Below the pieces are notes generated by a model, which had not been told where the DNA came from, made no database searches, and saw only the letters and a program-made list of their open reading frames with translations. From a virus, in IMG/VR virus record IMGVR_UViG_3300045988_144682: DNA of 64,000 nt. One strand, written 5' to 3'. How positions within the stretch are numbered: position 1 is the first letter of the stretch; each line of letters opens with the position of its first letter. Shown here piece by piece: positions 2,254 to 44,820 of the stretch. Both the position numbers and the translations under genes were made by a program.

Positions 2254-2666
2254 CATATGATAGAGAAAATATGCGATGGATAGAATACACAAAACTATCT
2301 AATGGACAATCGGCGGTAATCTGTTTTGATAAGAACTATAGACATGAAATAGGAAGTGGATATGATTATGCAGTTGCTTTTGCTATTGCTAATAAAAAGA
2401 AAGTTTTAAGGCAGTGGCTTAATAGTGACGGTTACGGCGATTTAGATATGACAACAACTGGGAAATGTGGTGTTGAGGGATTATTGTGGGCTTTTAAAAT
2501 GGTTCGTGAATTTATAGGAACACATATGTATGAAAATGATAGAATCATTGTATATGGTTCAGATGCAAGAAGACAAAAGGTATATAGACATTTTCTCACT
2601 ACTAGATTAGGGTTTGAAGAAATACTTGATCCATATTGGGGAAGATGCCTTGCAAAAAACTTATAA
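2250..2666 (+). CDS. hypothetical protein
   Basis: 138-aa ORF with a TTG start in the track (first ATG at 2271). No recognisable motif. Confidence 0.55.
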   Translation: MTYDRENMRWIEYTKLSNGQSAVICFDKNYRHEIGSGYDYAVAFAIANKKKVLRQWLNSDGYGDLDMTTTGKCGVEGLLWAFKMVREFIGTHMYENDRIIVYGSDARRQKVYRHFLTTRLGFEEILDPYWGRCLAKNL

Positions 2667-2683
2667 ACAAACCAAAATAAATG

Positions 2684-2712
2684 TTGACACAATAATAAAA
2701 ATGTGGTATCTT
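2684..2712 (+). promoter_or_regulatory. sigma-70/sigA-type promoter
   Basis: TTGACA at 2684-2689, 17-nt spacer, extended -10 TGgTATCTT at 2704-2712. Lies upstream of the 2761 start. Confidence 0.6.
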
Positions 2713-2760
2713 ATATATAAAGAAAAACACAACTAATAAAAATTCACGGAGGTATTAAAA

Positions 2761-5517: not shown

Positions 5518-6834
5518 ATGAAGTTAGGAAGAATTGTAACAAGTTTATTAGAGAATGATCTGTATAAATTCAGTATGGGACAGGCAATTTATCATCAGTT
5601 CTCAGACTACAAGACAACATGGAGTTTTAAATGCCGGAACAAAGACGTACATTTCACAAAAGAAATGCTGGAAGAAGTCAGAGAGCAGATTAAAGCATAT
5701 TGTGAGCTGCGGTTCACAGAAGACGAACTGAGTTATCTGGACGGTATCAAGTGGATTAAAGGATCTTACGTTGATTTCCTAAGACTCTGGAAACCACGAT
5801 ATGAAGATTTCACAATTACAGATGATGCAGAATGTGGACTTGTCATTGAAACTGCCGGTACATGGTTAAATACTTCTATGTACGAAATCCCGACACTTGC
5901 TATTGTAAATGAAGTGTATTTCAGAATGCAGTATGATTATGATGAGCTGTTAAGTAGCTTCAAGAAAAGACTGGATAACAAGTATGCAAATCTTCGCAAT
6001 GGTCATTGGTATTGTGGCACATTTTCAGAGTTTGGACTTCGCCGGAGATTATCTGCAGAAGCACAGGAACTTGTTGTTGAGAAGTTCTCACACCTGAATG
6101 ATACGGCGCATTGTGCATCAAGATTTATTGGCACTTCAAACGTATTTCTTGCGAAAAAATACGGAGTTACACCAGTTGGCACAATGGCACATGAATGGAT
6201 TATGTGTGTAGGACAGGGAAATCACAAGCACAATCCGGCATATTCTAATTGGTATGCACTTGACGCATGGGTTAAGGAATATGGAGTTTTGAACGGTACA
6301 GCACTGACAGATACAATTACAACCGACTGTTTCTTGGAAGATTTCCAGCTTACATTCGCAACATTGTTTTCTGGCGTTCGTCATGATTCGGGTGATCCGA
6401 TGGTGTGGGGCGAAAAGATGATTAAGCACTATGAAAAACTGGGGATTGATACGAAAACAAAAACATTGCTTTTCTCTGATTCACTGGATTTTGAGAGAGC
6501 AGATAAGATTTGCCGACATTTTTCAAAGAAAGCAAAAGTCGCATTCGGAATCGGCACATATTTGTCAAATGATACTTGCGTAAGTCCACTCAATATCGTT
6601 ATGAAGACTACAAAATGCAATGGTCAGGATGTGGCTAAAATTTCCGATGTTGAAGGAAAGGGAATGTGTAAGAATCCAGAGTATGTGGATTATTTGAGAA
6701 GATCAATTGGTTGGAGAATGGAGTCCTCAAAGAAAGCAGAAATGGACGAAAAACTGACTTCATATTTTAAAAGCAGTTTTACAGGAGAAAAGACACCTGT
6801 TTTAATACAGGGTAGTGGGAAAAGTAGAATGTAA
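5518..6834 (+). CDS. pncB: nicotinate phosphoribosyltransferase
   Basis: 438 aa, collinear with E. coli PncB as I recall it: LLENDLYKFSMGQA, FGLRRR, GTSNV, GTMAHEW, ALTDTITTD, GVRHDSGDP..WGEK...YEKLGID, LLFSD, FGIGT, NIVMK...NG..VAK.SD. Confidence 0.92.
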   Translation: MKLGRIVTSLLENDLYKFSMGQAIYHQFSDYKTTWSFKCRNKDVHFTKEMLEEVREQIKAYCELRFTEDELSYLDGIKWIKGSYVDFLRLWKPRYEDFTITDDAECGLVIETAGTWLNTSMYEIPTLAIVNEVYFRMQYDYDELLSSFKKRLDNKYANLRNGHWYCGTFSEFGLRRRLSAEAQELVVEKFSHLNDTAHCASRFIGTSNVFLAKKYGVTPVGTMAHEWIMCVGQGNHKHNPAYSNWYALDAWVKEYGVLNGTALTDTITTDCFLEDFQLTFATLFSGVRHDSGDPMVWGEKMIKHYEKLGIDTKTKTLLFSDSLDFERADKICRHFSKKAKVAFGIGTYLSNDTCVSPLNIVMKTTKCNGQDVAKISDVEGKGMCKNPEYVDYLRRSIGWRMESSKKAEMDEKLTSYFKSSFTGEKTPVLIQGSGKSRM

Positions 6835-11991: not shown

Positions 11992-12370
11992 GGGGATGAA
12001 ATTGGATTCGATTGGGCATGGAACGGATATAATTCGCAGGAGCGACTACCTAATAGTCAAACTTAAAATAAACGCTGAAGAATTAAGAATGGTAGCGTAA
12101 GCTATATCAGTCTGTGAGATTGGGATATTGGTAACAGGCTGTATTAAGAGCTAATATCCAAAAGGAGAATGTTTTCTCTGTAAGTTGACTCTTCAAAAAA
12201 CAACAGAGTGGTGGACGTTGTAAGAAACCTTTACAAACCCAAAAACGGAGTAGTTACCTGATTCACTGGGGCAACCGTTTTCAAACAAAATGCCCGAATG
12301 AATGGTATTGCGTAAAAGATTATATAATTAGTACGTGTTTAAGACGGGGGTTCGACTCCCCCCATCTCCA
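11992..12370 (+). ncRNA. ssrA: tmRNA (SsrA)-like RNA
   Basis: 5' GGGGATGAAATTGGATTCGA. 3' GGGGGTTCGACTCCCCC-CATCTCC-A. The acceptor GGGGATG/CATCTCC includes a G3:U70 pair. No CCA is encoded. The tag frame is uncertain; the best candidate ends ...NAEELRMVA-TAA at 12098-12100. Confidence 0.75.
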
Positions 12371-12496
12371 CTGTAATAGCTGGTTATTGTTGTTACGGCT
12401 ATTACTAAAAACCTTTCTATCTAAATGGGGCGATGTAAAAATCGTCCCAAATAAAAAAATCACACAACTTTAAACAAACAATAATAAAGAAAATGC

Positions 12497-32530: not shown

Positions 32531-32902
32531 ATGAGAACGAATGATATTTTATTAGACGGATTTAATGATATCCGCACACTTCAAAGATATCTTTATATGT
32601 CAGATGAACATTATATTGAGATAGAAAATGTTATTGGAGTGAAACTGAGAATTAGAATGGGAGAAAACTTACATTATTATTGTAAGAACATGAATTTCCC
32701 AGATTTGCCAGATGCATGTTTTTCGGAATCAATGACGAATAAAACTATGTTAGGTATTATTGACCAGTTGAAAGAGAATCCGGCAACTGAATATCCAAAC
32801 AGTTTTAAGAATAGATGGGATGAGATAGTATCAATAACATCTGCAAACGTAGCTCAGAACGAATATAAATGGGCGAATGGAAGATACAGAGGGAGTGTGT
32901 AA
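32531..32902 (+). CDS. hypothetical protein
   Basis: 123-aa ORF. Confidence 0.55.
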   Translation: MRTNDILLDGFNDIRTLQRYLYMSDEHYIEIENVIGVKLRIRMGENLHYYCKNMNFPDLPDACFSESMTNKTMLGIIDQLKENPATEYPNSFKNRWDEIVSITSANVAQNEYKWANGRYRGSV

Positions 32903-32903
32903 G

Positions 32904-34136
32904 ATGAAAGACATCAAAATGCCAGAAAATGTAAAAATGATTCTTGATAAATTATCAAGTGAAGGGCATGAAGCTGTTATAATTGGTGGTTGCGTGCGTG
33001 ATTCTATCATGGGGATCGAACCGCATGATTGGGATATTGCCACATCTGCCCAACCAGAAGAAATAATGGAATGTTTCAAGAGATATAATCTAATGAAAGC
33101 TGGATTAAAACATGGGACAGTAACCGTTATTATTGACCATGAGCCGTATGAAATCACTACTTACAGAATTGATGGGGAGTATTCAGATCATCGAAGACCT
33201 GATTCTGTTGATTTTACATGTGATTTAGCAGAAGACATTATGCGCCGGGATTTCACAATCAATGCTATCGCATATGACGGAGAAAATATTATTGACTTGC
33301 ATGATGGTATTGGAGATTTGCAGAAAGGGATTATCCGTTGTGTTGGTAATGCAAATACAAGATTCAGAGAAGATCCGCTTAGAATTCTCCGGGCGATTCG
33401 ATTTGCTGCACGATTTGGCTTTGAGATTGAAGAATTAACTAAAAAAGCAATGTTTGATAATTGTGATATGTTGCGACTCATTGCAACGGAGAGAAGACAG
33501 AGTGAATTTACAAAAACACTTTGCAGTGAGCATGTCAGTATCATCAAGGATTATGCTAAAATACTGAAATATGGTTTACCATGTATTGACAGCATTAAGG
33601 ATTTTGATAAGGCAGTACGTGCAATAGAAATGTGCCAGGATATCAGTGAAAAATTGGCAATTTTGATTGACGGATTATCATTATCAGAGTATAATAAAGC
33701 TGTTAAAGCAATTTTGACAGGAATGAGATATCCGAATAAAGTAATTGTATCTGTTCAAAATATTTTTGCTGCAAAGAAAATGGTAATTACTAACTCAGAT
33801 GCGTGTATCAAAAATATGTTGTACAAGTTTTCACTGGAAGATGTGAAACATATTTTAAGATATAAACACGCTAAAATAAATGCAAGTGATAATATAAATA
33901 AAGAAACACTTGAAAAAGTAGAGGATATGATTGAACGTGCAGAAGAATTGGCTGAATCAGATGAATGCTACAACTTAAAAGGTCTTGCAATTAACGGAAA
34001 TGATTTAAAACGCCTGGGAGTGAAAGATCTTGACATTAAGTGGATGTTAGATGGACTGTTAAAATTAGTAACCACAAATCAAGTAGAAAATTCGAGGGAC
34101 GTATTGATCGAGGTGGCAAAAATTTCCATGTTATAA
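32904..34136 (+). CDS. cca: CCA-adding tRNA nucleotidyltransferase
   Basis: ATG at 32904 after GAGGGAG. IIGGCVRDSIMG..PHDWDIAT (head domain), TYR.DG.Y.DHR, RRDFTINA, DPLRILRAIRFAARF. Confidence 0.88.
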   Translation: MKDIKMPENVKMILDKLSSEGHEAVIIGGCVRDSIMGIEPHDWDIATSAQPEEIMECFKRYNLMKAGLKHGTVTVIIDHEPYEITTYRIDGEYSDHRRPDSVDFTCDLAEDIMRRDFTINAIAYDGENIIDLHDGIGDLQKGIIRCVGNANTRFREDPLRILRAIRFAARFGFEIEELTKKAMFDNCDMLRLIATERRQSEFTKTLCSEHVSIIKDYAKILKYGLPCIDSIKDFDKAVRAIEMCQDISEKLAILIDGLSLSEYNKAVKAILTGMRYPNKVIVSVQNIFAAKKMVITNSDACIKNMLYKFSLEDVKHILRYKHAKINASDNINKETLEKVEDMIERAEELAESDECYNLKGLAINGNDLKRLGVKDLDIKWMLDGLLKLVTTNQVENSRDVLIEVAKISML

Positions 34137-34638: not shown

Positions 34639-35958
34639 ATGAAAGCATCTGATAGTAGAGAGCATCTAATTACTAAAATTGAGAATTTAGTTTTAAACTC
34701 AAGTCCAGATAAAATAAACAAAATTGAAGAAGAAGTTAGACATGACGGTAAAATCTCATTAGGCAGTTTTCTTAGAATAGTATCAGGGAGAGCCGATTTA
34801 GATGAACTGAGTGATGCCGAATTATATTGGCTGACTTTTGCCATATCTAAAGTATCAAAAAATTTTGGTGTGCCGGAAGATTATTTTGAAGACGTAGAAA
34901 TTCAGAATTATAAATATTATGATCCACAAACAGATAATAATAAAAAAATTGGTTATCCGTTAGTTTTTAGAAATGTTTCAAAATTGGCAGATAATCAGTA
35001 TATGTTTCCATTAAGTGTCAGAGAAATTAAAGAATTAAAGAGTGCAAATCTTTTGCAAATTATTCCAGAGCTGCAGCGTAACCACAAAAAGGATAAATAT
35101 GGAGATTTAAAAACAAAGGTTAATCGCCAAACAGCGCAACAGATTTCTAATCTTATCAATGAGGGAAGTTTTTTCTATAACGGAATTCGTTTCAATTTAA
35201 TGGATGACGGTGATAGTGATATTCCAGTTTATGACGAAGAAGCAAAAACATTAACTGTTTCAAATGGTATTATTATCGTTCCAGATGGAAACCATAGAAC
35301 AATAAGTTGTGAATTAGCAAATAAACATTTAGATGATTGTTTTGGTGTATTTTTCACATATTTCTCACCACAGAAGACGAGAGAATTGCTTAATCAGGAA
35401 TGGACAACAGTGCCGATTCCGAAACGACACAGAGAGGCGATGAAGCCTACAGTTGCAAATAAGATTGTAGATTCAATTATGAGAAGCAGTGATGCCGATG
35501 AAATCTATGTAAAAGGTATCGTGAAAGATGGAATGGAACTCCGGGCAAATAATGGATTCATTCTTTATATTGAATTGGCAACGGCAATTTCAAGATACTA
35601 TGATACAGATAATCTTACATTCAAAGCACAGCAAGATGAATTGAGAGACTGGCTGATTACTTACATGAATTATCTTACAATGTTATTGCACGATGATTTT
35701 ATGAATTATAAGAAAGCGAAGAGAACCTCTTGGTCTGTACACTATATGGCATGGCATTATTATATAATGATTAGCAGATATATAAAAGGCGATGACAACT
35801 GGCGTGAAGAGCTAAAGAGAATTATAGCTGAAACCGACTTTTCAGATCAAGAAATTAGAGAATTCTTTGTTAAAAATAATCGCAGGAAAGTATATGAATT
35901 CTGCAATGAGAAGGAGGAACAGTTATGTACAACTCTGAACAAAAACAAACTTTCTTAA
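34639..35958 (+). CDS. ParB/sulfiredoxin-fold protein of the DGQHR (DndB-like) type
   Basis: 439 aa. The central IIIVPDGNHRTISCELA follows a QR-containing segment (IPELQRNHK), resembling the DGQHR-domain layout. Confidence 0.4.
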   Translation: MKASDSREHLITKIENLVLNSSPDKINKIEEEVRHDGKISLGSFLRIVSGRADLDELSDAELYWLTFAISKVSKNFGVPEDYFEDVEIQNYKYYDPQTDNNKKIGYPLVFRNVSKLADNQYMFPLSVREIKELKSANLLQIIPELQRNHKKDKYGDLKTKVNRQTAQQISNLINEGSFFYNGIRFNLMDDGDSDIPVYDEEAKTLTVSNGIIIVPDGNHRTISCELANKHLDDCFGVFFTYFSPQKTRELLNQEWTTVPIPKRHREAMKPTVANKIVDSIMRSSDADEIYVKGIVKDGMELRANNGFILYIELATAISRYYDTDNLTFKAQQDELRDWLITYMNYLTMLLHDDFMNYKKAKRTSWSVHYMAWHYYIMISRYIKGDDNWREELKRIIAETDFSDQEIREFFVKNNRRKVYEFCNEKEEQLCTTLNKNKLS

Positions 35959-36893
35959 ATACTATTACAAATGATAATTCATATAGATCATTCCAAAGAG
36001 TTTTCAAAGCTGTACAGGATATGGAAGAAAAATTTGGAAAAGATATTTGTGAGATGAATGTTGATGAACTTCTAACTGTTCTGGATTTCAAAACGGGAGT
36101 GCGAATTACAAATACCGAACAAACAATGAGCTTATTGCGTTCATATGTTGATTGGTGTATTCAAAATGGTAAGACAACTAGCGAAAATAATTTTGATAAA
36201 ATCAGTTCTTCCGAAGTAGATAAGACTAGAACTTGTCGGGCGAGATATGTCAAATCGCCGGTAGAATTTGAGGAAATGATTAAAATTGCATTTGGTATGA
36301 ATGTTGATTACAATGAAAGCACTGAAATACCAAACGAGTTAATGGTAAGGTTATGTTATGTTGGCTTAGAGAATGAAGAGATTGTACTTTTAGAAAAGGC
36401 TAATGTAGATTACGAAGCAAAGACGATTAAAAGCCCACTTTATGATTGCGTTTATCATGTTTCCGATAGGATTCTGAAACTTTGTAAATTTTGTGCGGAG
36501 CAAGAAGAAGTATTGCTTATGGCGAAGTTCGGTATGCGAAAAGAAAGAGTATGCAGCAACAAGTATTTATTTAGAAATCGACTTGGTACATTACGTGGAA
36601 AATCTGAAGATTCTCCACTGAATAAATTAGTTATCCCTAGAAAAGTAAAGGCATTTAGCGATGCGTATGTTGAAAGTACAGGAAATTATAAAGCTATATC
36701 TTGTGATAAATTACGTGAGAGCAAGATGCTTTATAATATCTATGAATCTGGTGAAACTTTTGATGTGTATTTTAACCAAGTAATTCTTCCAGATATTAAA
36801 ATGCGCAACCCGGAATATACAGAGCGGAAAATCCAGGAGAGAAGACGTATTCTCAAAGGTATGTATGATTTATATAAGGAAACTTTCTATTAA
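35925..36893 (+). CDS. hypothetical protein
   Basis: 322-aa ORF with GGAGGA RBS that overlaps the upstream gene by 34 nt. The N-terminus looks like a SAM-like core-binding fold, but no RHRY catalytic set was found. Confidence 0.55.
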   Translation: MYNSEQKQTFLNTITNDNSYRSFQRVFKAVQDMEEKFGKDICEMNVDELLTVLDFKTGVRITNTEQTMSLLRSYVDWCIQNGKTTSENNFDKISSSEVDKTRTCRARYVKSPVEFEEMIKIAFGMNVDYNESTEIPNELMVRLCYVGLENEEIVLLEKANVDYEAKTIKSPLYDCVYHVSDRILKLCKFCAEQEEVLLMAKFGMRKERVCSNKYLFRNRLGTLRGKSEDSPLNKLVIPRKVKAFSDAYVESTGNYKAISCDKLRESKMLYNIYESGETFDVYFNQVILPDIKMRNPEYTERKIQERRRILKGMYDLYKETFY

Positions 36894-36970
36894 GGAAAGG
36901 CGAGACTGGGATCTCGCCAAAACCTTGCGATAAACAACCGAAAATAAATGAAAAAACTTTTAAAAACCTA

Positions 36971-36998
36971 TTGACATTTTCCTGAAATATGGTATTAT
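36971..36998 (+). promoter_or_regulatory. sigA-type promoter driving the RNA array
   Basis: TTGACA at 36971-36976, 16-nt spacer, TGgTATTAT at 36990-36998. Confidence 0.6.
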
Positions 36999-37024
36999 AT
37001 AATTGTTCAAAGGAACAGAGAAAA

Positions 37025-37082
37025 ACACTGGAAAAGCTAATAAGGTAGCTTAAGAAAATAGGTTCGATTCCTAATCCATGTG
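37025..37082 (+). ncRNA. D-armless mini tRNA-like element (unit 0)
   Basis: Hand fold. Acceptor ACA(C)TGGA/TCCATGT has one bulge. Single hairpin AAGCT-AATAAGGT-AGCTT. T arm (A)TAGG-TTCGATT-CCTA(A). Confidence 0.35.
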
Positions 37083-37085
37083 ATC

Positions 37086-37152
37086 GACATTTCGGGGCTT
37101 ATCTCCGTGAAAAAGTTGTGTTTGTTTGTAGAACGGACAACTCCGAAATGTC
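37086..37152 (+). ncRNA. long imperfect hairpin RNA
   Basis: GACATTTCGGGG at 37086-37097 pairs with CTCCGAAATGTC at 37141-37152. An inner TCCGT/ACGGA helix is present. Confidence 0.35.
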
Positions 37153-37186
37153 TTTAAAAATAATATAAACAAGCAATAATAAATGA

Positions 37187-37304
37187 GCTGATGTAGTTCA
37201 ACTGGTAGAACATTTGATTATGAAAAATGCACTTCGTACAATAAGTGCTAACAGCAATAGCAAAGCCACTCAAACAGTTGTTGGTTCGAGTCCAACCGTC
37301 AGCA
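37187..37304 (+). tRNA. tRNA-scaffold gene with 52-nt anticodon-loop region (unit A)
   Basis: Acceptor GCTGATG/CGTCAGC. D arm GTTC-AACTGGTA-GAAC. Stem TTTGA (37213-17) / TCAAA (37270-74). Variable CAGTT. T arm GTTGG-TTCGAGT-CCAAC. The insert holds hairpin GCACTT/AAGTGC followed by ACAGCAAT (37251-58). Confidence 0.55.
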
Positions 37305-37425
37305 TTCGGCAGAAATGCCATAAATGTATGAGAAAGACACATGCAGCAAATTCAAAAGGATAAAGCAAAACTCTACAAGTTTAGTGAAGTGGTTCAAATC
37401 CACAAAAATGAAGTGTCTTGAAAAT
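37305..37425 (+). ncRNA. structured RNA, paralog of the 40246-40330 element (unit B)
   Basis: CAGAAATGCC (37310-19). AAGACAC (37334-40) followed by AT-GCAGCAAAT. An AAACT-CTACA-AGTTT hairpin. T-arm-like GTGG-TTCAAAT-CCAC. GTGTCTT (37413-19) is complementary to AAGACAC. Confidence 0.4.
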
Positions 37426-37433
37426 GTGAATAT

Positions 37434-37549
37434 GGGAGTGATCCGGCGGTGCTTTTTAAGGCGCATCGGGTGGAGAGCGCATACAGCAATTTTACATAAA
37501 AGGAAACTCTTCAAAAGTTTTAGTTACGGTTCGACTCCGTACACTCCCA
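37434..37549 (+). tRNA. tRNA-like gene with intact UCA anticodon arm and extra sequence around the D arm (unit C)
   Basis: Acceptor GGGAGTG/CACTCCC. D-arm-like GCGC-ATCGGGTGGAGA-GCGC (37461-80) followed by AT-ACAGCAAT. Anticodon arm AAACT-CTTCAAA-AGTTT (37504-20, anticodon TCA at 37511-13). T arm TACGG-TTCGACT-CCGTA. Confidence 0.55.
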
Positions 37550-37570
37550 CAATTCCACCAATTAAAAAAT

Positions 37571-37706
37571 GGGTAAGTGGCGAAATAGGCACACGCAACG
37601 GCAATTTTTATACACATGTGTTTAGTTGACAAACACATACAGCAATTTATTTAAGTAGAAGAAATCAGGAAGCCGTGTCTTGCAGGTTCGAGTCCTGTCT
37701 TACCCG
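37571..37706 (+). tRNA. tRNA-scaffold gene with 69-nt anticodon-loop region (unit D)
   Basis: Acceptor GGGTAAG/CTTACCC. Leu-like D arm TG-GCG-AAATAGGCACA-CGC. Stem ACGGC (37598-602) / GCCGT (37672-76). T arm GCAGG-TTCGAGT-CCTGT. Insert hairpin ATGTGTTT-AGTTGAC-AAACACAT followed by ACAGCAAT (37639-46). Confidence 0.55.
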
Positions 37707-37862
37707 TTAGCACCATGAAAGTATGCAACTTTGTTTAGTTGGAAATGAAAGAATATCGCACCACAAGAATCGTATGTTTTGTGTGATTAAATGTAGCGAA
37801 AAGGTATCGTGAAAGGCTAATCCATTGGAGGTCGTGCATGGCTTCGCTTTATGGTGCAACCA

Positions 37863-37936
37863 GGATCATTAGCTCAGTTGGTTAGAGCATCCGGCTCATA
37901 ACCGGGCGGTCACTGGTTCGAGTCCAGTATGATCCA
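37863..37936 (+). tRNA. tRNA with CAT anticodon (Met, or Ile2 if lysidinylated)
   Basis: Canonical cloverleaf GGATCAT-TA-GCTC-AGTTGGTTA-GAGC-A-TCCGG-CTCATAA-CCGGG-CGGTC-ACTGG-TTCGAGT-CCAGT-ATGATCC-A. No CCA is encoded. Confidence 0.9.
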
Positions 37937-38068
37937 TTTGAGCAATTTCAAACGCTCAACATTTTGATTTTTGTAGCTTGGTTTTAGCGAAAGCTGTGGA
38001 AACTATCTGTAAAATAGGGAGATAGTGTGTCTCATATGTGAGGTTTGTATGAGAAAAATTAAATATTT

Positions 38069-38194
38069 GCCACCGTAGCTCAACTAGATAGAGCAACGTA
38101 AATCGAAAAACGTGTCTAGTATTAGACACAGACAGCAATTTTTCAAGATAGCATGTTAAGCCGTAGGTTATAGGTTCGACTCCTATCGGTGGCG
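38069..38194 (+). tRNA. tRNA-scaffold gene with about 74 nt replacing the anticodon arm (unit F)
   Basis: Acceptor GCCACCG/CGGTGGC. D arm GCTC-AACTAGATA-GAGC. T arm ATAGG-TTCGACT-CCTAT. Internal hairpin GTGTCT-AGTATT-AGACAC followed by AG-ACAGCAAT (38132-39). No clean anticodon stem found. Confidence 0.5.
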
Positions 38195-38197
38195 TTG

Positions 38198-38332
38198 GCG
38201 AGAGTATGCAAGAGGCTTAAGCAAATGATACAAAAATGTGCTTAGTTCTAGCACACACAGCAAAATTCTCAGAAGAAAACATTGATTCAAAATTGTAAGT
38301 TGAATTCGTGGGTTCAAATCCCACCTCTCGCC
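38198..38332 (+). tRNA. class-II-like tRNA-scaffold gene with insert (unit G)
   Basis: Acceptor GCGAGAG/CTCTCGC. Ser/Leu-like D arm TGC-AAGAGGCTTAA-GCA. T arm GTGGG-TTCAAAT-CCCAC. Long arm ATTCAA-AATTGTAAG-TTGAAT. Hairpin GTGCT-TAGTTCT-AGCAC followed by AC-ACAGCAAA (38257-64). Confidence 0.5.
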
Positions 38333-38333
38333 C

Positions 38334-38418
38334 TGGTGAAATGGTAATGGATTAGAATGGCAGCAATTCATATAGTTCCCCTGTAAAAACAAGGTTGCCA
38401 CTGATTCTTGCCACACCA
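38334..38418 (+). ncRNA. small structured RNA without T arm (unit H)
   Basis: TGGTG (38334-38) / CACCA (38414-18) closing helix. Contains CAGCAAT (38361-67). Has GGCAG/TTGCC internal pairing. Confidence 0.3.
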
Positions 38419-38421
38419 TAA

Positions 38422-38557
38422 GCGTATGTAGCTCAGTAGGTTAGAGCGTCCACAAAAATTTTATAGAGCCTTGTATAAGGCTTGAACCGCAAATATTTTT
38501 AAAGAATTTGAAATTGAGGAAGGTGGAAGGTCACAAGTTCAAGTCTTGTCATACGCA
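38422..38557 (+). tRNA. tRNA-scaffold gene with 69-nt anticodon-loop region (unit I)
   Basis: Acceptor GCGTATG/CATACGC. D arm GCTC-AGTAGGTTA-GAGC. Stem TCCAC (38449-53) / GTGGA (38523-27). Variable AGGTC. T arm ACAAG-TTCAAGT-CTTGT. Insert hairpin AGCCTT-GTAT-AAGGCT followed by TGAA-CCGCAAAT. Confidence 0.55.
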
Positions 38558-38651
38558 CTTATTCTAATTTTTATATACTTACAGCATAATCAAACAATAA
38601 TAAAGTATGTAGGAATTATGAAATATAATTCAAAATTAGGAGGAATTGAAC

Positions 38652-40205
38652 ATGGGTTTCATGAATTCAATGAAAAGTACGTTGAATGAAGATTTCAACG
38701 AAAGCTACACAGAAAACGGCGCACTTGGATATAGAACAACAGGTAAACACTTGCTTGATTTGAATTTCAAGGTCGCATCTCTGAGAAAAGCTGATGCAGA
38801 AACAATCATTTCTGGATTCGATAAAGCGTTTTCAGAAGACCATATTCACGCACTCAAATGGTTATTCTATTTGCGTGATGCGAGAGAAGGTCTGGGGGAA
38901 CGTAGATCATTCAGAATCATCATGTCTCATTTGGCAAATGTTGAGCCGGAAATCAGTAAAGTGCTGATTGGTTTAATCGCTGAATACGGACGTAGTGATG
39001 ATCTTCTCTCCCTGTTAGGTACAGAGTGTGAAAAAGACACACTGGAACTTATCAAAAATCAGCTAATGAAAGATTTAGAAGCAAAAAAAGCGAACAAACC
39101 AGTATCATTGTTTGCTAAGTGGTTGCCAAGTTGTAATGCAACTTCCCACAAAACAAGAGAAAATGCTGCAGTAATTCGTAAGTATTTGGGATTCACAGAA
39201 AGACAATATCGTAAGATTCTTTCGGAACTGAGAGAGTATATTGATGTTGTTGAAAGAAAGATGTCTGCTAAGAAATGGGGCGAAATCAATTACGAAGCCG
39301 TTCCGTCAAAAGCAAATCTTATTTACAACAATGCATTCCTCAAAAACGATGAGGAACGCAGACGAGAGTATCTGGATAAGCTGGAAAAGGGAGAGGCGAA
39401 AATCAACTCTTCTACAAACTTCCCACATGATATCGTACATAGTTATCTGAAAGGTCGTAGCTATTACAGATCCAATATAAAAGAGAACAAAGCTCTGGAA
39501 GCATTATGGAAAGCACTTCCTGATACAGTACAGGGTGATGGAAATACTCTTGTTGTCAGAGATGGTTCTGGAAGTATGATGTGTAGTGTTGATCCAAACA
39601 GCAGCATTACTGCACTGGAAGTCGCAACAGCACTTGCTATTTACTTCTCTGAGAGATGTTCTGGCGAATTCAAAGATAACTTTATCACATTCAGTTCAAG
39701 ACCTGAGTTGATTGATCTTTCAGCGTGTAGTTCACTGGCAGAAAAAATCAGAAGATGTTATGCAGAAAATGACTGTTCTAACACAGACATTGAAAAAACA
39801 TTTGATCTTATTCTGCAGACAGCTATCAATACTAATATGAAACAGGAAGACATGCCAAAGAATATCCTGATTATCAGTGATATGGAATTTGACCAGGCAA
39901 CCTATTCATATGGATGGGGAGGTAGCGCAAGCACAGTAAATGAAACACTGTTCAAGACAATTGGCAGAAAATTTGAGAAAGCTGGATATCAGCTTCCGAG
40001 ACTTGTGTTCTGGAATGTAAACTCACGTACCGGCACAATCCCTGTCAAGGAAAACGCTTTGGGTGTTGCTCTTGTAAGTGGATTCTCAGTCAATGTTGCG
40101 AAAATGGTATTAAGCGGAGAACTTGATCCGTATAAATGTCTGATTGAGCAGCTTGACACAGAGAGATATGCACCGATTGAGGCAGCAATCAAAGATTTAA
40201 AATAA
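38652..40205 (+). CDS. vWA-domain protein of the DUF2828 / TROVE (Ro60)-like architecture
   Basis: ATG at 38652 after AGGAGGA. A helical N-terminal about 300 aa beginning ..YTENGALGY.TTGK.LLDLNF. C-terminal vWA with MIDAS VVRDGSGSM and ISDMEFD. The family assignment is from memory. Confidence 0.6.
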   Translation: MGFMNSMKSTLNEDFNESYTENGALGYRTTGKHLLDLNFKVASLRKADAETIISGFDKAFSEDHIHALKWLFYLRDAREGLGERRSFRIIMSHLANVEPEISKVLIGLIAEYGRSDDLLSLLGTECEKDTLELIKNQLMKDLEAKKANKPVSLFAKWLPSCNATSHKTRENAAVIRKYLGFTERQYRKILSELREYIDVVERKMSAKKWGEINYEAVPSKANLIYNNAFLKNDEERRREYLDKLEKGEAKINSSTNFPHDIVHSYLKGRSYYRSNIKENKALEALWKALPDTVQGDGNTLVVRDGSGSMMCSVDPNSSITALEVATALAIYFSERCSGEFKDNFITFSSRPELIDLSACSSLAEKIRRCYAENDCSNTDIEKTFDLILQTAINTNMKQEDMPKNILIISDMEFDQATYSYGWGGSASTVNETLFKTIGRKFEKAGYQLPRLVFWNVNSRTGTIPVKENALGVALVSGFSVNVAKMVLSGELDPYKCLIEQLDTERYAPIEAAIKDLK

Positions 40206-40245
40206 AACAACTTCATACGTGGCAAAACAACCAAAGTAAAAAGTA

Positions 40246-40330
40246 CAGAAATGCCTTGTAAGACACGTACAGCAAATAATAATGCAATCAACTTTTAATT
40301 GATAACCGCAAACTAAGTGTCTTGAAGAAC
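40246..40330 (+). ncRNA. structured RNA, paralog of unit B (unit J)
   Basis: CAGAAATGCC (40246-55). AAGACAC (40260-66) followed by GT-ACAGCAAAT (40269-77). Inner hairpin ATCAA-CTTTTAA-TTGAT. GTGTCTT (40317-23) followed by GAAG. Followed by a strong terminator. Confidence 0.45.
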
Positions 40331-40344
40331 GTATATTCCATAAT

Positions 40345-40391
40345 GGTTAGACGAAGTGGCAGTGGTTGTAAGCACTTCTTCTAACCTTTTT
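40345..40391 (+). terminator. Rho-independent terminator
   Basis: GGTTAGACGAAGTG / CACTTCTTCTAACC: a 14-bp stem with one mismatch, followed by TTTTT. Confidence 0.75.
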
Positions 40392-40422
40392 GAATAGATA
40401 TTTTTCAACATAGAGGTTATAC

Positions 40423-41517
40423 ATGAGAAAGTTAGCAACAATTCGTGAAATCGCAGAAATCAAGCCGATTCCTGATGCTGACAGAATCGAAGTAGCAAGA
40501 ATTGATGGTTGGGAAGTTGTCGTGTCAAAGAAAGACAATTTTCATGTTGGCGATAGAGTGGTATATGTCGAGATTGACAGTAAGATGCCGGAAACGCCAG
40601 AGTATGAATTCTTGAAATCAAGAAAGTATGTTGTAAAGACTATCGTAATGAGAGGACAGGTTTCACAAGGATTAGTGATGCCGTTATCCATTCTTCCGGT
40701 AGGTGAATACAAACTTGGTCAGGATGTTACGGATGTCTTAGGAATCATTAAGTATGATCCACAGCTTGAAGAAGAAAATGCGGTTTTCGAGGAAAACAGA
40801 AAGAAAACCAGGAATCCAGTTGTGAAATTTTTAATGAGATATGCATGGTTCAGAAAAATCTATCTCAAGAAGAATACGCACACAGAGTTTCCAAACTTTA
40901 TTAAAAAGACAGATGAAGAAAGAATTCAGAATATGCCTGAGTTATACGAAAGGCTGAAGAATGAACAAACCAATCTGATAGTGACAGAAAAAGTTGACGG
41001 ATGTTCCGGCACTTATTTTTTACGCAAAATTCCGAGAAAATTCGGAAAAGCGAAGTACGAATTCGGAGTTTGCAGCAGAAATAGGAGATTGCCACAGCCG
41101 GATAACAGCTACTATTGGAAAATCGCCAACAAATACAAAATTCGCAGCGTTCTTGAAAAATTGATAGACGATGAGGATTATATAGTATTACAAGGCGAAA
41201 TTACTGGTGCAAAAATCCAGGGAAACAAATATCATGAGAAAGATTGCCAGTTATGGGCATTCAACCTCATAGCCCCCTCAAAGAAATATAATACCATTGA
41301 GATGCAAGACATTCTCATTAAGCATGGTATTCATACAGTACCAATTGTTGAGATTGGTTACAATGTAAAAGGTGATATACAAGATATTGTAAAGTATGTG
41401 AAAGGCAAGTCACAAATTGTAGATAGGGAAAGAGAAGGATGTGTTTTTAGAAATACTGATAAGAATATCAGTTTCAAATGTATTAACCCAAACTTCTTAA
41501 TCAAGAATAATGAGTAG
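40423..41517 (+). CDS. ATP-dependent RNA ligase (Rnl5/DraRnl-like, N-terminal OB-type extension)
   Basis: 364 aa. The N-terminus MRKLATIREI.EIKPIPDADRIEVA.IDGW.VV is typical of this ligase clade. Nucleotidyl-lysine motif TEKVDG. Confidence 0.72.
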   Translation: MRKLATIREIAEIKPIPDADRIEVARIDGWEVVVSKKDNFHVGDRVVYVEIDSKMPETPEYEFLKSRKYVVKTIVMRGQVSQGLVMPLSILPVGEYKLGQDVTDVLGIIKYDPQLEEENAVFEENRKKTRNPVVKFLMRYAWFRKIYLKKNTHTEFPNFIKKTDEERIQNMPELYERLKNEQTNLIVTEKVDGCSGTYFLRKIPRKFGKAKYEFGVCSRNRRLPQPDNSYYWKIANKYKIRSVLEKLIDDEDYIVLQGEITGAKIQGNKYHEKDCQLWAFNLIAPSKKYNTIEMQDILIKHGIHTVPIVEIGYNVKGDIQDIVKYVKGKSQIVDREREGCVFRNTDKNISFKCINPNFLIKNNE

Positions 41518-41612: not shown

Positions 41613-42518
41613 ATGGGAAGGGAAATGAGAATGGATCGGAGCAGTATTGGTACGAGAATGAAATCTTATGAAGATGCTCAGAAAACGTACTTAACAAGAA
41701 GAATGCCAGTAATGATTAGAGTGGATGGAAATGCTTTTCATACATTCACCAGAGGTTTTGAAAGACCTTTTGACAGCATTATGGCAGAATCAATGCAGCG
41801 CACAATGAAATATATGTGCGAAAACATTTCTGGATGTGTCTTAGGATATACACAGAGCGATGAAATCACATTACTTCTGATTGATTACAAGAAAAAGAAT
41901 CAGGGAGCATGGTTTGGATATGTAAAGCGAAAGGTAGAAACTATCGCAGCGAGTATGGCAACAATGGCTTTCAATGAGGCTTTTTCAGATGTAATTACGG
42001 AAAAGATATCAGAAGACATTATGAAAGTTCAGAATGATGAAGAAGCCGAAAAAGTAAAGGATTACTATTTCAAATATGTAAAGAAATGTGGAAGGGCAAT
42101 GTTTGATGCTAGAGCATTTAATATCCCAGAATTTGAAGTAGTCAATGAATTTATTTGGAGGCAGCAGGATTGTACAAGAAATTCAATTCAGTCAGTTGGT
42201 CATGCAAATTTTTCAGATAAGAAAATGCATAAGAAAAATATGAGTCAGATTCAAGACATGCTCATGTTGAAGAAAGGAATCAACTGGAATGATTTTCCGA
42301 CTTTTCTGAAAAGAGGATCTTGTTGTATCAAAGAAGATTATTTCATTCCAGAAAATGAGCTTCCAGAAAATCACAGAAACAATTTATCCCCACGGACATT
42401 AGATCCAGAAGAAGATGAATATGGTGTGTGGAGATCACGTTGGGTTATCGACAAAGAAATTCCAATTTTCACACAGAACAAAAACTATGTTAATAATTTG
42501 TTTTTAAACAAGTATTAA
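41613..42518 (+). CDS. Thg1-like protein (tRNA 3'-5' nucleotidyltransferase/5'-end repair)
   Basis: 301 aa. RMKSYE....YL.RRMPVMIRVDGNAFHTFTRGFERPFD and GYTQSDEITLLL. The start may be the ATG at 41631. Confidence 0.82.
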   Translation: MGREMRMDRSSIGTRMKSYEDAQKTYLTRRMPVMIRVDGNAFHTFTRGFERPFDSIMAESMQRTMKYMCENISGCVLGYTQSDEITLLLIDYKKKNQGAWFGYVKRKVETIAASMATMAFNEAFSDVITEKISEDIMKVQNDEEAEKVKDYYFKYVKKCGRAMFDARAFNIPEFEVVNEFIWRQQDCTRNSIQSVGHANFSDKKMHKKNMSQIQDMLMLKKGINWNDFPTFLKRGSCCIKEDYFIPENELPENHRNNLSPRTLDPEEDEYGVWRSRWVIDKEIPIFTQNKNYVNNLFLNKY

Positions 42519-42550: not shown

Positions 42551-43456
42551 ATGAAAACAAGTTATTCAGAAATCGTAAATGAAAACTACATCGGCAAAAC
42601 TGAAAATCCCATTCCGATGAATGAAATTCTGAAAAAAGCAAACGAAGAAAAGTTAGAGCCATCTTCAAGCAGTCTTGAAAAAGTGCTGTTTTTGGGAATT
42701 GATGTGCAGCAGGACTTCATGGATAACGGAGCGTTAGGTGTTCCCGGCGCACATGAAGATGTTGCTAGAATGACTAAGTTCATTTATAACAACATGGAGA
42801 AAATCTCGCACATTTCAGTATCTATTGATACTCACATTCCACACCAGATTTTCCATCCGTGTTGGTGGATTGATGAAAACGGCAATAATCCAGCACCTTA
42901 CACTGTTATTACATTAGCAGATTTGGATTCTGGAAAATGGCGTCCTATTGTTGAACCAATTAAGAGCCGTGAGTATGTAGAGAATCTGGAAAAGAACTCT
43001 AAAAAGAAACTTTGCATTTGGACATATCACTGCTTACAGGGTACAGAAGGTGCAGCACTGGAAAATCAGTTTGCAAATATGATTTACTTCCACAGTGTAG
43101 CAAGAAAATACGCACTGAACCCTATCGTAAAAGGTCAAGATCCACTGTCGGAGATGTACGGTATTATCAAGCCGGAATATGACAGAAGAGGATATGTGAA
43201 CCAGGCACTATTAAACAAGTTCGCAAAATTTGACAAAATCATCATCGGCGGTGAAGCAAGAGATTATTGCGTATACGAATCTCTCTGCCAGATGCTTGAA
43301 TTTTACAAAGATGACACTGATATGCTGAAAAAGTTCTACATTCTGGAAGATTGTATGTCTGCCATTGGTGATAAAGCCGAAGTTGACAAGATGTATGCAG
43401 ATCTTCAGAAAAAGTACAAATTCAACATTGTACGCAGCACTGAATTCAAACTGTAA
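42551..43456 (+). CDS. pncA: isochorismatase-family hydrolase, nicotinamidase-like
   Basis: 301 aa. FLGIDVQQDFMDNGALGVPGA, WTYHCLQGTEGA, IIGGEARDYCV (catalytic Cys context). Confidence 0.65.
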   Translation: MKTSYSEIVNENYIGKTENPIPMNEILKKANEEKLEPSSSSLEKVLFLGIDVQQDFMDNGALGVPGAHEDVARMTKFIYNNMEKISHISVSIDTHIPHQIFHPCWWIDENGNNPAPYTVITLADLDSGKWRPIVEPIKSREYVENLEKNSKKKLCIWTYHCLQGTEGAALENQFANMIYFHSVARKYALNPIVKGQDPLSEMYGIIKPEYDRRGYVNQALLNKFAKFDKIIIGGEARDYCVYESLCQMLEFYKDDTDMLKKFYILEDCMSAIGDKAEVDKMYADLQKKYKFNIVRSTEFKL

Positions 43457-44127: not shown

Positions 44128-44181
44128 GAATAACAGAATTCGCCCCATTCATTAAGGGTGGGGCGATACACGGAGAAAAAT

Positions 44182-44820
44182 ATGTTTGTAAACAAAATAG
44201 GTTACGATCATTTATCTATCGGAATGAACTGCCAGGATTACGGATTTGAATTGTCGGATTATAAAGTGAAAGTTGTAGCAGATGGTTGTTCTGAGGGATT
44301 ACATTCAGAAGTAGGAGCAAAGACATTTTGCCACCTGTTGTCAAAAGGATATGATATCGAACAGGCTTTTTCTTCTTTGGTTGCTGTATATGGGCAGACA
44401 ATTGAGGATATGAAGAATTTCTTGTGCTTTACATATCTTTCGGTAACAGAAAGTAATGAATATTTCATTACATCAAATTGTGGCGATGGTTTCCTTATTT
44501 TGGAAGATAACGAAGGTAATATATCGTTTGTTGAATTAACCGATGGCGAATATCCGAAATACTATATCTACAACTATATTGACAAAAAATATCTTAATCA
44601 TTATGCAGATGGTGTTTCTGTAGAAAATAAGCTATTCAGCAAGGAAGAATACAAGAATGTAGGTATTGCTTCCGATGGATTGAGATTTATTGTAAATGCA
44701 GATGAAGATATCAAACAGGAATTTATTGAATGTTTAAAGTCTGGGAAAGCAGTGAAAATAAAAAGATTTATTAACCGTAACCAGAAATTATTCAGAGATG
44801 ATATTACAATTGTTTTTTAA
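44182..44820 (+). CDS. PP2C-family protein phosphatase-like
   Basis: ATG at 44182 after GGAG. NCQDYG......VVADGCSEG.HSEVGA, NCGDGF, IASDG. Confidence 0.65.
   Translation: MFVNKIGYDHLSIGMNCQDYGFELSDYKVKVVADGCSEGLHSEVGAKTFCHLLSKGYDIEQAFSSLVAVYGQTIEDMKNFLCFTYLSVTESNEYFITSNCGDGFLILEDNEGNISFVELTDGEYPKYYIYNYIDKKYLNHYADGVSVENKLFSKEEYKNVGIASDGLRFIVNADEDIKQEFIECLKSGKAVKIKRFINRNQKLFRDDITIVF

Follow-up and report, generated by a model that had tools for sequence, protein, structure and literature searches.

The 64,000-nucleotide (nt) stretch of IMG/VR virus record IMGVR_UViG_3300045988_144682 (the window, to which all coordinates refer unless another locus is named) encodes, between the gene of a Ro60-like protein and that of an RNA ligase, a small RNA (40260-40324) that is a member of a conserved RNA family with anticodon-arm mimicry. 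The part shared by the family, here called the module, combines a terminal helix (P1) with a single-stranded ACAGCAAY strand, and it is linked in strand and position to the gene of the Ro60-like protein. We consider the RNA at 40260-40324 to be probably a Y-RNA-like partner of the Ro60-like protein, which would bind it. A preliminary description of this DNA had put forward a candidate Y-RNA-like RNA beside a Ro-like gene, and that proposal is supported by the Ro60-like predicted fold of the protein, by covariation in the helix and by a YrlA-like RNA in the mycobacteriophage Moostard. The coordinates of the features discussed are collected in Table 1.

The gap between the stop codon of the Ro60-like gene (40203-40205) and the ATG of the RNA ligase gene (40423) is 217 nt long (40206-40422). 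As had been reported, it holds no credible open reading frame (ORF), the only candidates being mechanical antisense ORFs on the minus strand (39989-40291 and 40347-40538), and the sequence strings listed for it are all in place: CAGAAATGCC at 40246-40255, AAGACAC, GT, ACAGCAAAT at 40269-40277, and GTGTCTT followed by GAAG. The RNA begins 55 nt past the stop codon of the Ro60-like gene and reads, in order, AAGACAC, GT, ACAGCAAA, UAAUAA, UGC, AA, UCAA-CUUUUAA-UUGA, UAACC, GCA, AACUAA, GUGUCUU and G. With its closing A-U pair, the UCAA-CUUUUAA-UUGA segment makes a 5-bp (base pair) ATCAA/TTGAT stem, and the inner hairpin so formed has the form of a tRNA-Lys(UUU) anticodon arm, i.e., C32, U33, UUU, A37 and A38. 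The minimum-free-energy fold consists of the outer 7-bp helix and this inner hairpin with its 5-bp stem and 7-nt loop. Neither ARAGORN nor Rfam detected a tRNA in 40260-40324, and there is no cloverleaf, just the 7-bp end helix and the anticodon-type hairpin. The preliminary description was right to see a structured RNA here but overlooked its mimicry of the tRNA-Lys anticodon arm. The strong terminator that it placed after the RNA is present as well, as a hairpin with arms at 40339-40358 and 40373-40392 that are 85% complementary and are followed by TTTTT; a simple terminator scan overlooked this hairpin because its loop is longer than 8 nt.

We compared 15 and then 80 loci around homologues of the window protein in IMG/VR, with protein identities from 33% to 97%. 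These loci carry labels such as L013, L016 and L021, and the same scheme denotes Moostard as L217, LP-083-2 as L218 and T5 as L220. In relatives with 62-68% protein identity, the 40260 element is the sole conserved island of the gap, and compensatory changes are found both in P1 (AAGACAC/GTGTCTT to GAGACAC/GTGTCTC) and in the inner hairpin (ATCAA/TTGAT to TTCAA/TTGAA). Together with the strong family-wide covariation described below, these changes uphold the earlier suggestion that AAGACAC and GTGTCTT close a helix. The folding energy of the single sequence is unexceptional (z = -1.2), and it is the covariation, not the energy, that supports the structure. In L021, a hairpin of other sequence occupies the place equivalent to 40339-40392. 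The loop behaves differently from the stems. In the near-identical loci L016 and L018 (at about 4641-4647), the loop at 40292-40298 has changed from CTTTTAA to CCGTTAA, and in L021 and L022 the loop of another copy, at 37508-37514, has changed from CTTCAAA to TTTCGCAT or CTGTCA, in both cases with stems and module unchanged. Such loop swaps between near-identical phages look like diversifying selection on the loop, judging from the sequences.

For family-wide analysis, we built a covariance model, R1, from 16 elements that stand free of any tRNA-like gene ("open" elements), one of which comes from this window; as a seed member, 40260-40324 scores 66.3 bits. At E<=1e-3, R1 gave 176 matches in 72 non-redundant loci, all of them on the strand of the gene. 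On 115 distinct aligned sequences, P1 is paired in 100% with double changes at 7/7 pairs, and the inner stem, P2, is paired in 92% with double changes at 5/5 pairs, while a control with slid partners gave 30-52% pairing. Because the R1 alignment is fitted to the model, tests independent of it were added. When elements were defined by P1 and the motif alone, 54 of 140 contained a hairpin of at least 5 bp with a 7-nt loop of the anticodon form Y-U-NNN-R, compared to 3.4 in shuffled sequences (maximum 8). The short helix P2a flanks the hairpin in 32/65 elements, compared to 12.4 in a partner-swap control, with a preferred geometry of 1 nt and 3 nt unpaired. Of 159 elements, 137 have a G directly after P1, and 144 have a linker of 2 nt between P1 and the motif. 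RNAalifold, run on an independent MAFFT alignment, recovered only P1, since P2 is misaligned there; P2 therefore rests on the model-fitted alignment and the independent hairpin test.

Read from its 5' end, the consensus module has the P1 strand RAGRCRC, 2 nt and the single-stranded ACAGCAAY-YUU, then a second helix and an A-rich strand; P1 is completed by its 3' strand, after which comes an unpaired G. The commonest loops of the second helix are CUUUUAA (Lys; 17 elements), CUUGAAA (9), CUGAUAA (5) and CUGCAAA (5), with CUGUUAA and UUUGGGN also represented, and a locus has several copies in tandem, 7-20 nt apart. The ACAGCAAY family is absent from Rfam 15, and we found no description of it in the literature on DUF2828, phage YrlA or mycobacteriophage Ro-like proteins. 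As far as Rfam 15 and this literature go, the ACAGCAAY module, its minimal form that mimics an anticodon arm, its permuted grafting into tRNAs and its high copy number per locus are undescribed.

The product of 38652-40205 is predicted, with moderate confidence, to have a Ro60-like ring with a vWA fold. Pfam assigns it PF11443 (DUF2828) and PF25043 (DUF7788), and its PHROG family, 850, is annotated "RNA-binding protein". The MIDAS (metal-ion-dependent adhesion site) motif D304-x-S306-x-S308, together with T378 and D410, is invariant in 26-28 homologues. A profile of 28 homologues searched against Protein Data Bank (PDB) sequences retrieved two matches only, both TROVE proteins of the Thermus phage phiLo (E 0.004), and these fall on the MIDAS segment (DVSGSM) at the equivalent position in the chain. 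The AlphaFold2 model, with a mean predicted local distance difference test score (pLDDT) of 73.9, shows a helical domain (about residues 30-290) followed by one of alpha/beta build and vWA type (298-517). When this model was searched against PDB structures with Foldseek, as the claim of a Ro-like fold in the preliminary description invited, the 12 best matches were all full-length Ro60/TROVE structures (phiLo Ro60, Xenopus Ro, human complexes and Deinococcus Rsr), with E from 1.2e-7 to 6.9e-5 and target-normalised template modelling (TM) scores of 0.33-0.52, mostly 0.41-0.52. Proteins with a vWA domain only ranked after them, with E values 100-fold worse. Homologues of the protein occur in 711 GenBank phage records, including Felix O1-like, P100/A511-like, Staphylococcus, Campylobacter, Vibrio and mycobacterial phages; those of mycobacteriophages are annotated as "Ro-like RNA binding protein", yet are DUF2828/DUF7788 by Pfam.

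The module and this gene are linked well beyond the window. In 82 loci (604 kb), ACAGCAA[ATC] occurs 462 times on the strand of the gene and 26 times on the other, and 158 plus-strand copies with a P1 partner lie within 500 nt before the start of the gene. In 44 of the 72 loci with R1 matches, a module is found at most 200 nt upstream or at most 300 nt downstream of the gene. The usual gap from module to start codon is 22-40 nt; the window's own clade instead has its adjacent copy downstream of the gene. A converse search of IMG/VR that used only the motif, as AGACACNTACAGCAAT, returned 120 stretches, of which 63 hold real elements with a P1 partner and 57 are chance matches in coding sequence, a chance share of about half being expected of a query with 15 specified bases. 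A DUF2828 homologue was present within the few kb fetched around 24/63 real elements, in contrast to 3/57 chance loci.

The same association is seen in cultured phages. The module adjoins the DUF2828 gene in Moostard (Mycobacterium), VRE9_3 (Enterococcus), LP-083-2 (Listeria) and the coliphage skuden, so that pairs of module and gene span phages of Actinobacteria, Firmicutes and Proteobacteria, and in LP-083-2 three tandem copies are visible by eye. These copies (L218 3656-3919) are open modules that are unmarked in the deposited annotation; they stand between the DUF2828 gene and a sub-threshold ROOL RNA (L218 2462-3013; 87.4 bits vs. a gathering score of 99.1), whose distance upstream of the gene is about 1 kb. 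Each of the four cultured phages inspected has its DUF2828 gene in or beside a tRNA array. In T5, our single tRNA-rich control (25 tRNAs), the first 50 kb contain no DUF2828 homologue and the tRNA array contains no module. T5 does have eight annotated "stable RNAs with unknown functions" (L220 30284-33949), some of them tRNA-like, none of which matches R1. At the DNA level, GenBank phages resemble the window only in tRNA-Met and in short matches to the ligase gene.

Within the window itself, exact ACAGCAAW occurs 8 times in 64 kb on both strands, and 6 of these occurrences, all on the plus strand, lie within 37251-40276. In total, 37.2-40.3 kb holds 8 copies of the module, two of which are open and six of which are closed by a loop inside tRNA-like genes. 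The preliminary description had recognized two paralogous RNAs; both are real, but the count was too low, there being at least 8 modules. In the open topology (37334-37420 and 40260-40324), P1 holds the two ends of the RNA and a loop closes the second helix. In the closed topology it is P1 that a loop closes, and the module sits as a graft inside a tRNA-like gene. Open and closed copies share one circular order: the 5' strand of P1, NN-ACAGCAAY, an anticodon-type hairpin or tRNA body, the A-rich strand and the 3' strand of P1.

The second open copy has the strings that had been listed for it, namely CAGAAATGCC at 37310-37319, AAGACAC at 37334-37340, GCAGCAAAT at 37343-37351 and GTGTCTT at 37413-37419, and the T-arm-like GTGG-TTCAAAT-CCAC and the AAACT-CTACA-AGTTT said to lie within it are both present. 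It runs from P1 (AAGACAC/GTGTCTT) through the motif GCAGCAAAT, an inner hairpin, the T-arm and the A-rich strand to a trailing G. Its orthologue in L021 retains the T-arm through the compensatory pair ACGG/CCGT. The two open copies have in common the upstream CAGAAATGCC, the P1 helix, the motif and a trailing GAA, and all matches of R1 in the window with E<0.2 lie in 37334-40324.

The remaining six copies change the reading of what had been called a tRNA array, which consists mostly of tRNA-like genes that bear the module. According to ARAGORN, the only uninterrupted tRNA is tRNA-Met (37863-37936). The Rfam tRNA model recognizes three more units of the array at its gathering score and a fourth at E 1.8e-7, each with an insertion of 45-70 nt in the anticodon region, and about 9 tRNA-like units can be counted in 37187-38557, 6 of them with a closed module. 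The insertions consist of a covarying hairpin (GCACTT/AAGTGC, GTGTTT/AAACAC, GTGTCTA/TAGACAC, TGTGCT/AGCACA or GAGCCTT/AAGGCTT), 1-2 nt, and ACAGCAAW. Their position differs from unit to unit. In 38069-38194 the module leaves the anticodon stem on its 5' strand, past the first 3 bp (ACG...GC-AUGUUAA-GC-CGU, dots marking the insert), a layout found again in L021, L039, L049, L058, L077 and L027; in 37187-37304 it lies between loop nucleotides 33 and 34 (UU...GCCAC). At the junction of D region and anticodon region it precedes, in 37434-37549, an intact hairpin of 5 bp and 7 nt with the loop CUUCAAA, which varies among close relatives, the acceptor/D region lying on its other side, and in 38197-38333 it stands between the D arm and a hairpin with the loop A-AUUGUAA-G. 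The whole anticodon loop is replaced in 37571-37707 and 38422-38557. The loop that caps P1 in 37187-37304 is 8 nt long here and 31-34 nt in close relatives, with the stem retained. Such module-bearing "long tRNAs" account for 19/51 tRNA matches in 9 related loci.

We also asked whether the sequences flanking closed modules form a helix of their own, but the longest complementary runs (6.12) were no better than in shuffled sequences (5.95 +/- 0.13); isolated covarying cases do exist, such as GAAAAA/TTTTTC in the window vs. CGTTAA/TTAACG in L021. At about 860-960 of L055, a module-bearing tRNA-like gene has the loop CUCUAAA, the amber-suppressor form, and its insert is flanked on both sides by ATCAGA. 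This repeat resembles a target-site duplication and hints that modules may have spread by insertion or duplication. Three further stretches of the array fold into long-range helices and match no family, giving a helix GACATTTCGG/CCGAAATGTC at 37088-37153, a helix GCACCATGAAAG/CTTTATGGTGC enclosing about 130 nt at 37709-37862, and a hairpin with GCAGCAAT at 38340-38421. No recognisable tRNA surrounds the T-arm-like GGTTCGATTCC at 37061.

Table 1. Features of the window that bear on the ACAGCAAY module and its neighbourhood.
Feature	Position	Strand	Basis
CCA-adding tRNA nucleotidyltransferase	32877-34136	+	Pfam PolyA_pol and related; NCBIfam 283 bits, just under cut-off
Sigma-70-like promoter, TTGACA, 16 nt, TATTAT, with TG	36971-36998	+	11/12 consensus positions; best site in 36700-40600
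tRNA-like gene, Gly-type D arm, closed module	37187-37304	+	Rfam tRNA 57.8 bits, 49-nt insertion; P1 hairpin 37229-37248, motif ACAGCAAT 37251-37258
Open module, paralogue of the 40260 RNA	37334-37420	+	R1 28.5 bits, E 2.5e-5, outside seed
tRNA-like gene with module (motif 37483-37490)	37434-37549	+	Fold, parsing; weak R1 match 37475-37533
tRNA-like gene, Leu-type D arm, closed module replacing anticodon loop	37571-37707	+	P1 37618-37623/37631-37636, motif 37639-37646
tRNA-like gene, Asn GUU type, closed module	38069-38194	+	Rfam tRNA 44.6 bits, 63-nt insertion; P1 38112-38129, motif 38132-38139
tRNA-like gene, closed module	38197-38333	+	P1 38237-38255, motif ACAGCAAA 38257-38264
tRNA-like gene, variant closed module in place of anticodon loop	38422-38557	+	Rfam tRNA 53.8 bits, 69-nt insertion; P1 38466-38483, motif ACCGCAAA 38486-38493
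Ro60-like protein (predicted): helical repeat domain and vWA domain	38652-40205	+	Pfam, PHROG, PDB profile, AlphaFold2/Foldseek
Small RNA gene, 65 nt	40260-40324	+	Sequence, R1 score, fold, orthologue and family covariation
P1 terminal helix, 7 bp, AAGACAC/GTGTCTT	40260-40266 with 40317-40323	+	
2-nt linker GT, then motif ACAGCAAA	motif 40269-40276	+	
P2a, 3 bp, TGC/GCA	40282-40284 with 40308-40310	+	
Anticodon-arm mimic: ATCAA, loop CTTTTAA, TTGAT	40287-40291, 40292-40298, 40299-40303	+	
A-rich return strand; unpaired G	40304-40316; 40324	+	
Terminator-like hairpin and T run	40339-40392	+	Fold; 30 nt upstream of RNA ligase start codon
ATP-dependent RNA ligase, DRB0094 (DraRnl-type) family	40423-41517	+	Pfam PHA02142 OB fold and RNA_ligase; PHROG 968
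Thg1-like 3'-5' nucleotidyltransferase (tRNA 5'-end repair family)	41613-42518	+	Pfam Thg1; PHROG 4717

Animals, about 5% of bacteria and a few phages are known to have Ro60 and Y RNAs. The genes of Y RNAs lie next to that of Ro60 and share its strand, with two or more per genome, and the RNAs mimic tRNAs; one of them has a tRNA-like module and another is a simple hairpin (PMC4201824). The bacterial YrlA consists of a terminal stem and a tRNA-like domain without an anticodon arm, and that of M. smegmatis is cut by RNase P and receives a CCA end (PMC4201824). The motif bound by Ro lies near the 5' end and reads GGUCCGA in animals and GNCGAAN0-1G in bacteria (PMC4201824). In phage phiLo, Ro60 binds Yrl RNAs that are encoded upstream of its gene (PMC12135203).

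The most direct connection between these RNAs and the module comes from Moostard, in which the "Ro-like RNA binding protein" gene precedes a row of three module RNAs. Two of these, the first and the third, are minimal forms, the third having the loop CUGCUAA and matching R1 at E 1.5e-9. The middle RNA (4545-4672) begins with P1 (TGGACCC/GGGTCCA), CC and ACAGCAAT, continues with a T-arm, a closed acceptor-like stem, a D-arm and GTTAAAAAC as the A-rich strand, and closes with P1's return strand plus a G. Against Rfam YrlA, the tRNA-like core of this RNA scores 37.9 bits (E 5e-7 in a 361-nt search), the gathering score being 69. The middle Moostard RNA thus has the published YrlA architecture, except that its terminal stem is the ACAGCAAY module, which is outside the Rfam model. 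The interrupted tRNAs of the window, in turn, have these parts in circularly permuted form, with the acceptor end open and the module stem closed.

Similar to YrlA and the Y RNAs associated with Rsr (PMC4201824; RF02553), the module RNAs are located at most a few kb from a Ro60-type gene on the same strand and in several copies per genome, form a terminal stem from their 5' and 3' ends beside a single-stranded motif that is conserved while the rest mimics parts of a tRNA, and belong to an RNA-repair neighbourhood that includes an RNA ligase; one Moostard module RNA moreover matches YrlA in T-arm, closed acceptor stem and D-arm. In contrast to YrlA, the terminal stem of the module is outside the Rfam YrlA model, the free-standing module mimics the anticodon arm, which is the part that YrlA lacks, many copies are circularly permuted, at least 8 copies may occur per locus, and the associated protein is DUF2828/DUF7788 rather than Pfam TROVE. 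The phiLo system (PMC12135203; PDB 9KOP, 9L5Y) shares with the window a phage Ro60-type ring with Y-like RNAs beside its gene, and no structure matches the model of the window protein better than phiLo Ro60, the only PDB sequence matches being from phiLo as well. However, identity in the structural alignment is about 18%, the phiLo RNAs were selected for a CGAA motif within a large bulge in their interior and lack an anticodon-arm mimic, and tRNA-embedded forms are not described for phiLo.

We propose that the array, the Ro60-like gene and the 40260 RNA form one transcript, which likely starts at the promoter at 36971, would run to the hairpin at 40339-40392 and would then be processed. The Ro60-like ring would bind P1 and the single-stranded ACAGCAAY, in parallel with the way in which Ro60 binds the terminal helix of Y RNAs and the GGUCCGA or GNCGAA strand. 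The anticodon-arm mimic or tRNA-like body would be the effector or bait end, tethering or titrating a factor that recognizes tRNA anticodon arms. Among the candidates for this factor are an anticodon nuclease of the host, an enzyme of modification, an exonuclease such as that of the complex of Ro, Y RNA and polynucleotide phosphorylase, and the repair enzymes of the phage itself. The setting would be a contest over tRNA cleavage and repair, in which the neighbouring RNA ligase, Thg1-like and CCA-adding enzymes could serve as well. A more specific proposal, which we hold only tentatively and on balance doubt, is that the Ro60-like ring and the ACAGCAAY RNAs manage anticodon arms, either as a changeable panel of baits (Lys, Asn, Ser, Pro and others) that would trap or misdirect host anticodon nucleases or by recognizing module-tagged tRNA precursors for excision of the insert and sealing of the nicked anticodon stem by the DRB0094 ligase. 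In the second case, bacterial viruses would have a pathway of tRNA splicing or "unlocking" that depends on a protein.

Several observations weigh against the 40260 RNA being a Y-RNA-like partner of the Ro60-like protein. The search with the Rfam Y_RNA and YrlA models that the preliminary description had called for gave no match in 36800-40500 even at E<=10, nor any in 9 related gut-phage loci. The conserved strand of the 40260 RNA is ACAGCAAY-YUU and not the Ro-binding GGUCCGA or GNCGAAN0-1G, and because the motif differs, the RNA is not a member of Rfam Y_RNA or YrlA. It also has neither a T arm nor a D arm; the 37334 copy does have a T arm, and the six embedded copies have full tRNA-like bodies. 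On the protein side, Pfam TROVE (PF05731) was not matched at E<=0.01 by 38652-40205 or by the homologues of Moostard, skuden, LP-083-2 and VRE9_3, and the structural model is only moderately confident (the pLDDT of 73.9, a TM score of about 0.45-0.5 and a root-mean-square deviation of about 9-10 A to Ro60 structures). Since the gene and the RNAs both live in tRNA arrays, part of their co-location could reflect shared context. Finally, at least 8 partner RNAs per genome with diverse anticodon-like loops are far beyond known Ro/Y systems and may indicate some other function. Taken with its G, the 3' strand of P1 resembles the animal GGUCCGA, as in GUGUCUUG at 40317-40327 and in the Moostard counterparts (L217) GUGUCCAG at 4527-4534, GGGUCCAG at 4664-4672 and CCGUCCAG at 4734-4741. 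This likeness is a lead only, as the strand in question is the opposite one relative to the internal loop.

The alternative that we regarded as the strongest rival, quite unlikely as we think it, is that the module is an intron-like cassette that marks tRNA precursors and is excised, the exons being sealed by the nick-sealing DRB0094 ligase, all within a pathway of tRNA maturation or repair that depends on a protein. The Ro60-like protein would then act as its recognition subunit, free-standing copies, 40260-40324 among them, would compete with or regulate this pathway, and the anticodon stem would hold the exons in register. It is true that many of the tRNA-like genes regain a canonical 5-bp stem and 7-nt loop once the insert is taken out, including 38069-38194, 37187-37304 and an example in L049 (CGT...GC-CUUUUAA-GC-ACG), that long forms are frequent among the tRNA matches of related loci, and that the adjacent ligase is of the TIGR02306 type; DraRnl-type ligases prefer a nicked duplex, and excision from the stem would leave one. 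But no endonuclease candidate was identified, the position of the insert varies (in the stem after 2-3 bp, at 33/34 of the loop, at the D/anticodon junction or in place of the whole loop), free-standing copies have no exons, and within the sequence fetched the ligase is present in just 2/63 of the loci found from the motif. Moreover, deletion of the insert from 37571-37707 and 38422-38557 leaves no canonical loop. We likewise rejected the long tRNAs as ordinary intron-containing tRNAs, as ARAGORN with introns allowed yielded forced solutions with inconsistent anticodons and the insert sites differ; no intron-less orthologues that would fix splice boundaries were found among close relatives. 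Compared to the intron-containing tRNAs of archaea (bulge-helix-bulge) and bacteria (group I), the window has similar inserts of 45-70 nt in or beside the anticodon loop of high-scoring tRNAs, some of which restore a canonical anticodon arm on removal, but what its inserts share is one conserved recognition module of protein type and not a splice-site geometry, they take variable positions, and the module also exists as an independent gene.

The free-standing copies lend themselves to another reading, one that we consider unlikely, in which they are stand-alone anticodon-arm decoys or ultra-reduced tRNAs that act independently of the Ro60-like protein, either soaking up host anticodon nucleases or tRNA-modifying enzymes or being processed, CCA-added and used. 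The 7-bp P1 with its unpaired G resembles an acceptor stem with a discriminator base, the anticodon-loop signature is strongly enriched, and Lys UUU and Asn GUU loops, which correspond to classic targets of anticodon nucleases, are frequent. The loop change from CTTTTAA to CCGTTAA in L016 and L018 would suit an arms race, and the phage encodes a CCA-adding enzyme. What such decoys do not explain without a dedicated protein is the invariant ACAGCAA strand and the linkage to the gene across host phyla; the uniform P1 and uniform G "discriminator" over all anticodon types argue against aminoacylation identity, and there is no T arm for recognition of the EF-Tu type. The same uniformity, along with an invariant ACAGCAAY connector, distinguishes the module from the armless mitochondrial tRNAs of nematodes and mites, which otherwise have a similar 7-bp end helix and anticodon arm with short connectors and no D or T arm, and, unlike for those tRNAs, nothing suggests that module RNAs serve translation. 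Stop-codon recoding was also considered as the reason for loops of the UCA and CUA types and was rejected, with no sign of it in the window and with those loops varying between close relatives.

That the module is a cis-acting element of messenger RNA (mRNA), whether as an operator for autoregulation or a signal for stability or processing in the untranslated region (UTR) next to the Ro60-like gene, or as the leader that precedes the RNA ligase gene, seems very improbable. In 42/72 loci a module does end at most 200 nt upstream of the start codon, mostly at 22-40 nt, and the window copy is located in the 3' UTR between stop codon and terminator. Yet there are several tandem copies per locus, some inside tRNA-like genes, the position flips between the 5' and the 3' side of the gene, the RNA ligase gene is seldom the neighbour, and a simple operator has no need of anticodon-loop features. 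Scarcely credible, in our view, is that the module punctuates the tRNA array as a small self-cleaving ribozyme of a new kind, in the manner of the theta ribozymes of gut phages, which resemble the hepatitis delta virus (HDV) ribozyme. In phages with theta ribozymes, small structured RNAs are spread across tRNA arrays, DRB0094 ligase is enriched 140-fold and the CCA-adding enzyme 250-fold (PMC10879173), and the array of the window is correspondingly flanked by DRB0094 ligase and CCA-adding genes. In contrast to this matching gene context, the window contains no theta/HDV core (ACC-U-CC-NCGY-GGU), "CAGCAA" is absent from the theta supplement, and no Rfam ribozyme family matched. The geometry differs as well: of the theta ribozymes associated with tRNAs, 77% are placed within +/-1 nt of a tRNA end (PMC10879173), whereas only 9/220 open modules lie at most 60 nt downstream of an uninterrupted tRNA, and the closed permuted forms inside tRNAs are unfit for a cleaver of 5' ends. 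We therefore rejected a theta/HDV-like identity.

The preliminary description had already noted that the ligase family differs from that beside known Ro genes and that the protein is of the DUF2828 type. The ligase (40423-41517) matches NCBIfam TIGR02306 at 157.9 bits, above the cut-off, in keeping with the DRB0094 family, and the protein is DUF2828 plus DUF7788. Just upstream of the promoter of the array, 35925-36893 encodes the N-terminal domain of an MrpR-type recombinase. Downstream of the Thg1-like gene are a weak nicotinamidase-like match (42551-43456) and a PP2C-type phosphatase (44158-44820). Farther away, 11992-12373 encodes a phage tmRNA with the tag peptide AEELRMVA (ARAGORN; Rfam 80.2 bits). 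In L013, an ORF directly upstream of the promoter of that array (2137-3040) combines a P-loop kinase N-terminus (GLPGSGKST) with an HD-type C-terminus (HD...LHDCGKP) and, by eye, resembles an RNA end-healing enzyme. In the same locus, at 5590-5900, a tRNA-Leu-like gene (GCCGGAGTGGCGGAATTGGCAGACGCACTGGACTT...AATCCAGTG) is broken by an insert of about 250 nt for which Rfam gave no match at E<=0.01; this insert may be a group I intron.

With these results, the large DUF2828 family gains an RNA family of its own, in the four cultured phages examined and in a gut-phage clade. That RNA family has a simple, searchable signature and a variable end that is either an anticodon arm or a whole tRNA, and it is present in tractable model phages. 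Many of the "tRNAs with introns", "pseudo-tRNAs" and short hypothetical ORFs in phage arrays are probably module RNAs. The anticodon arm is thereby indicated as the business end of a Ro-type ribonucleoprotein, and it becomes testable whether Ro-type rings act on tRNA anticodon arms in infection or counter anticodon nucleases, and what the widespread DRB0094 ligases seal.

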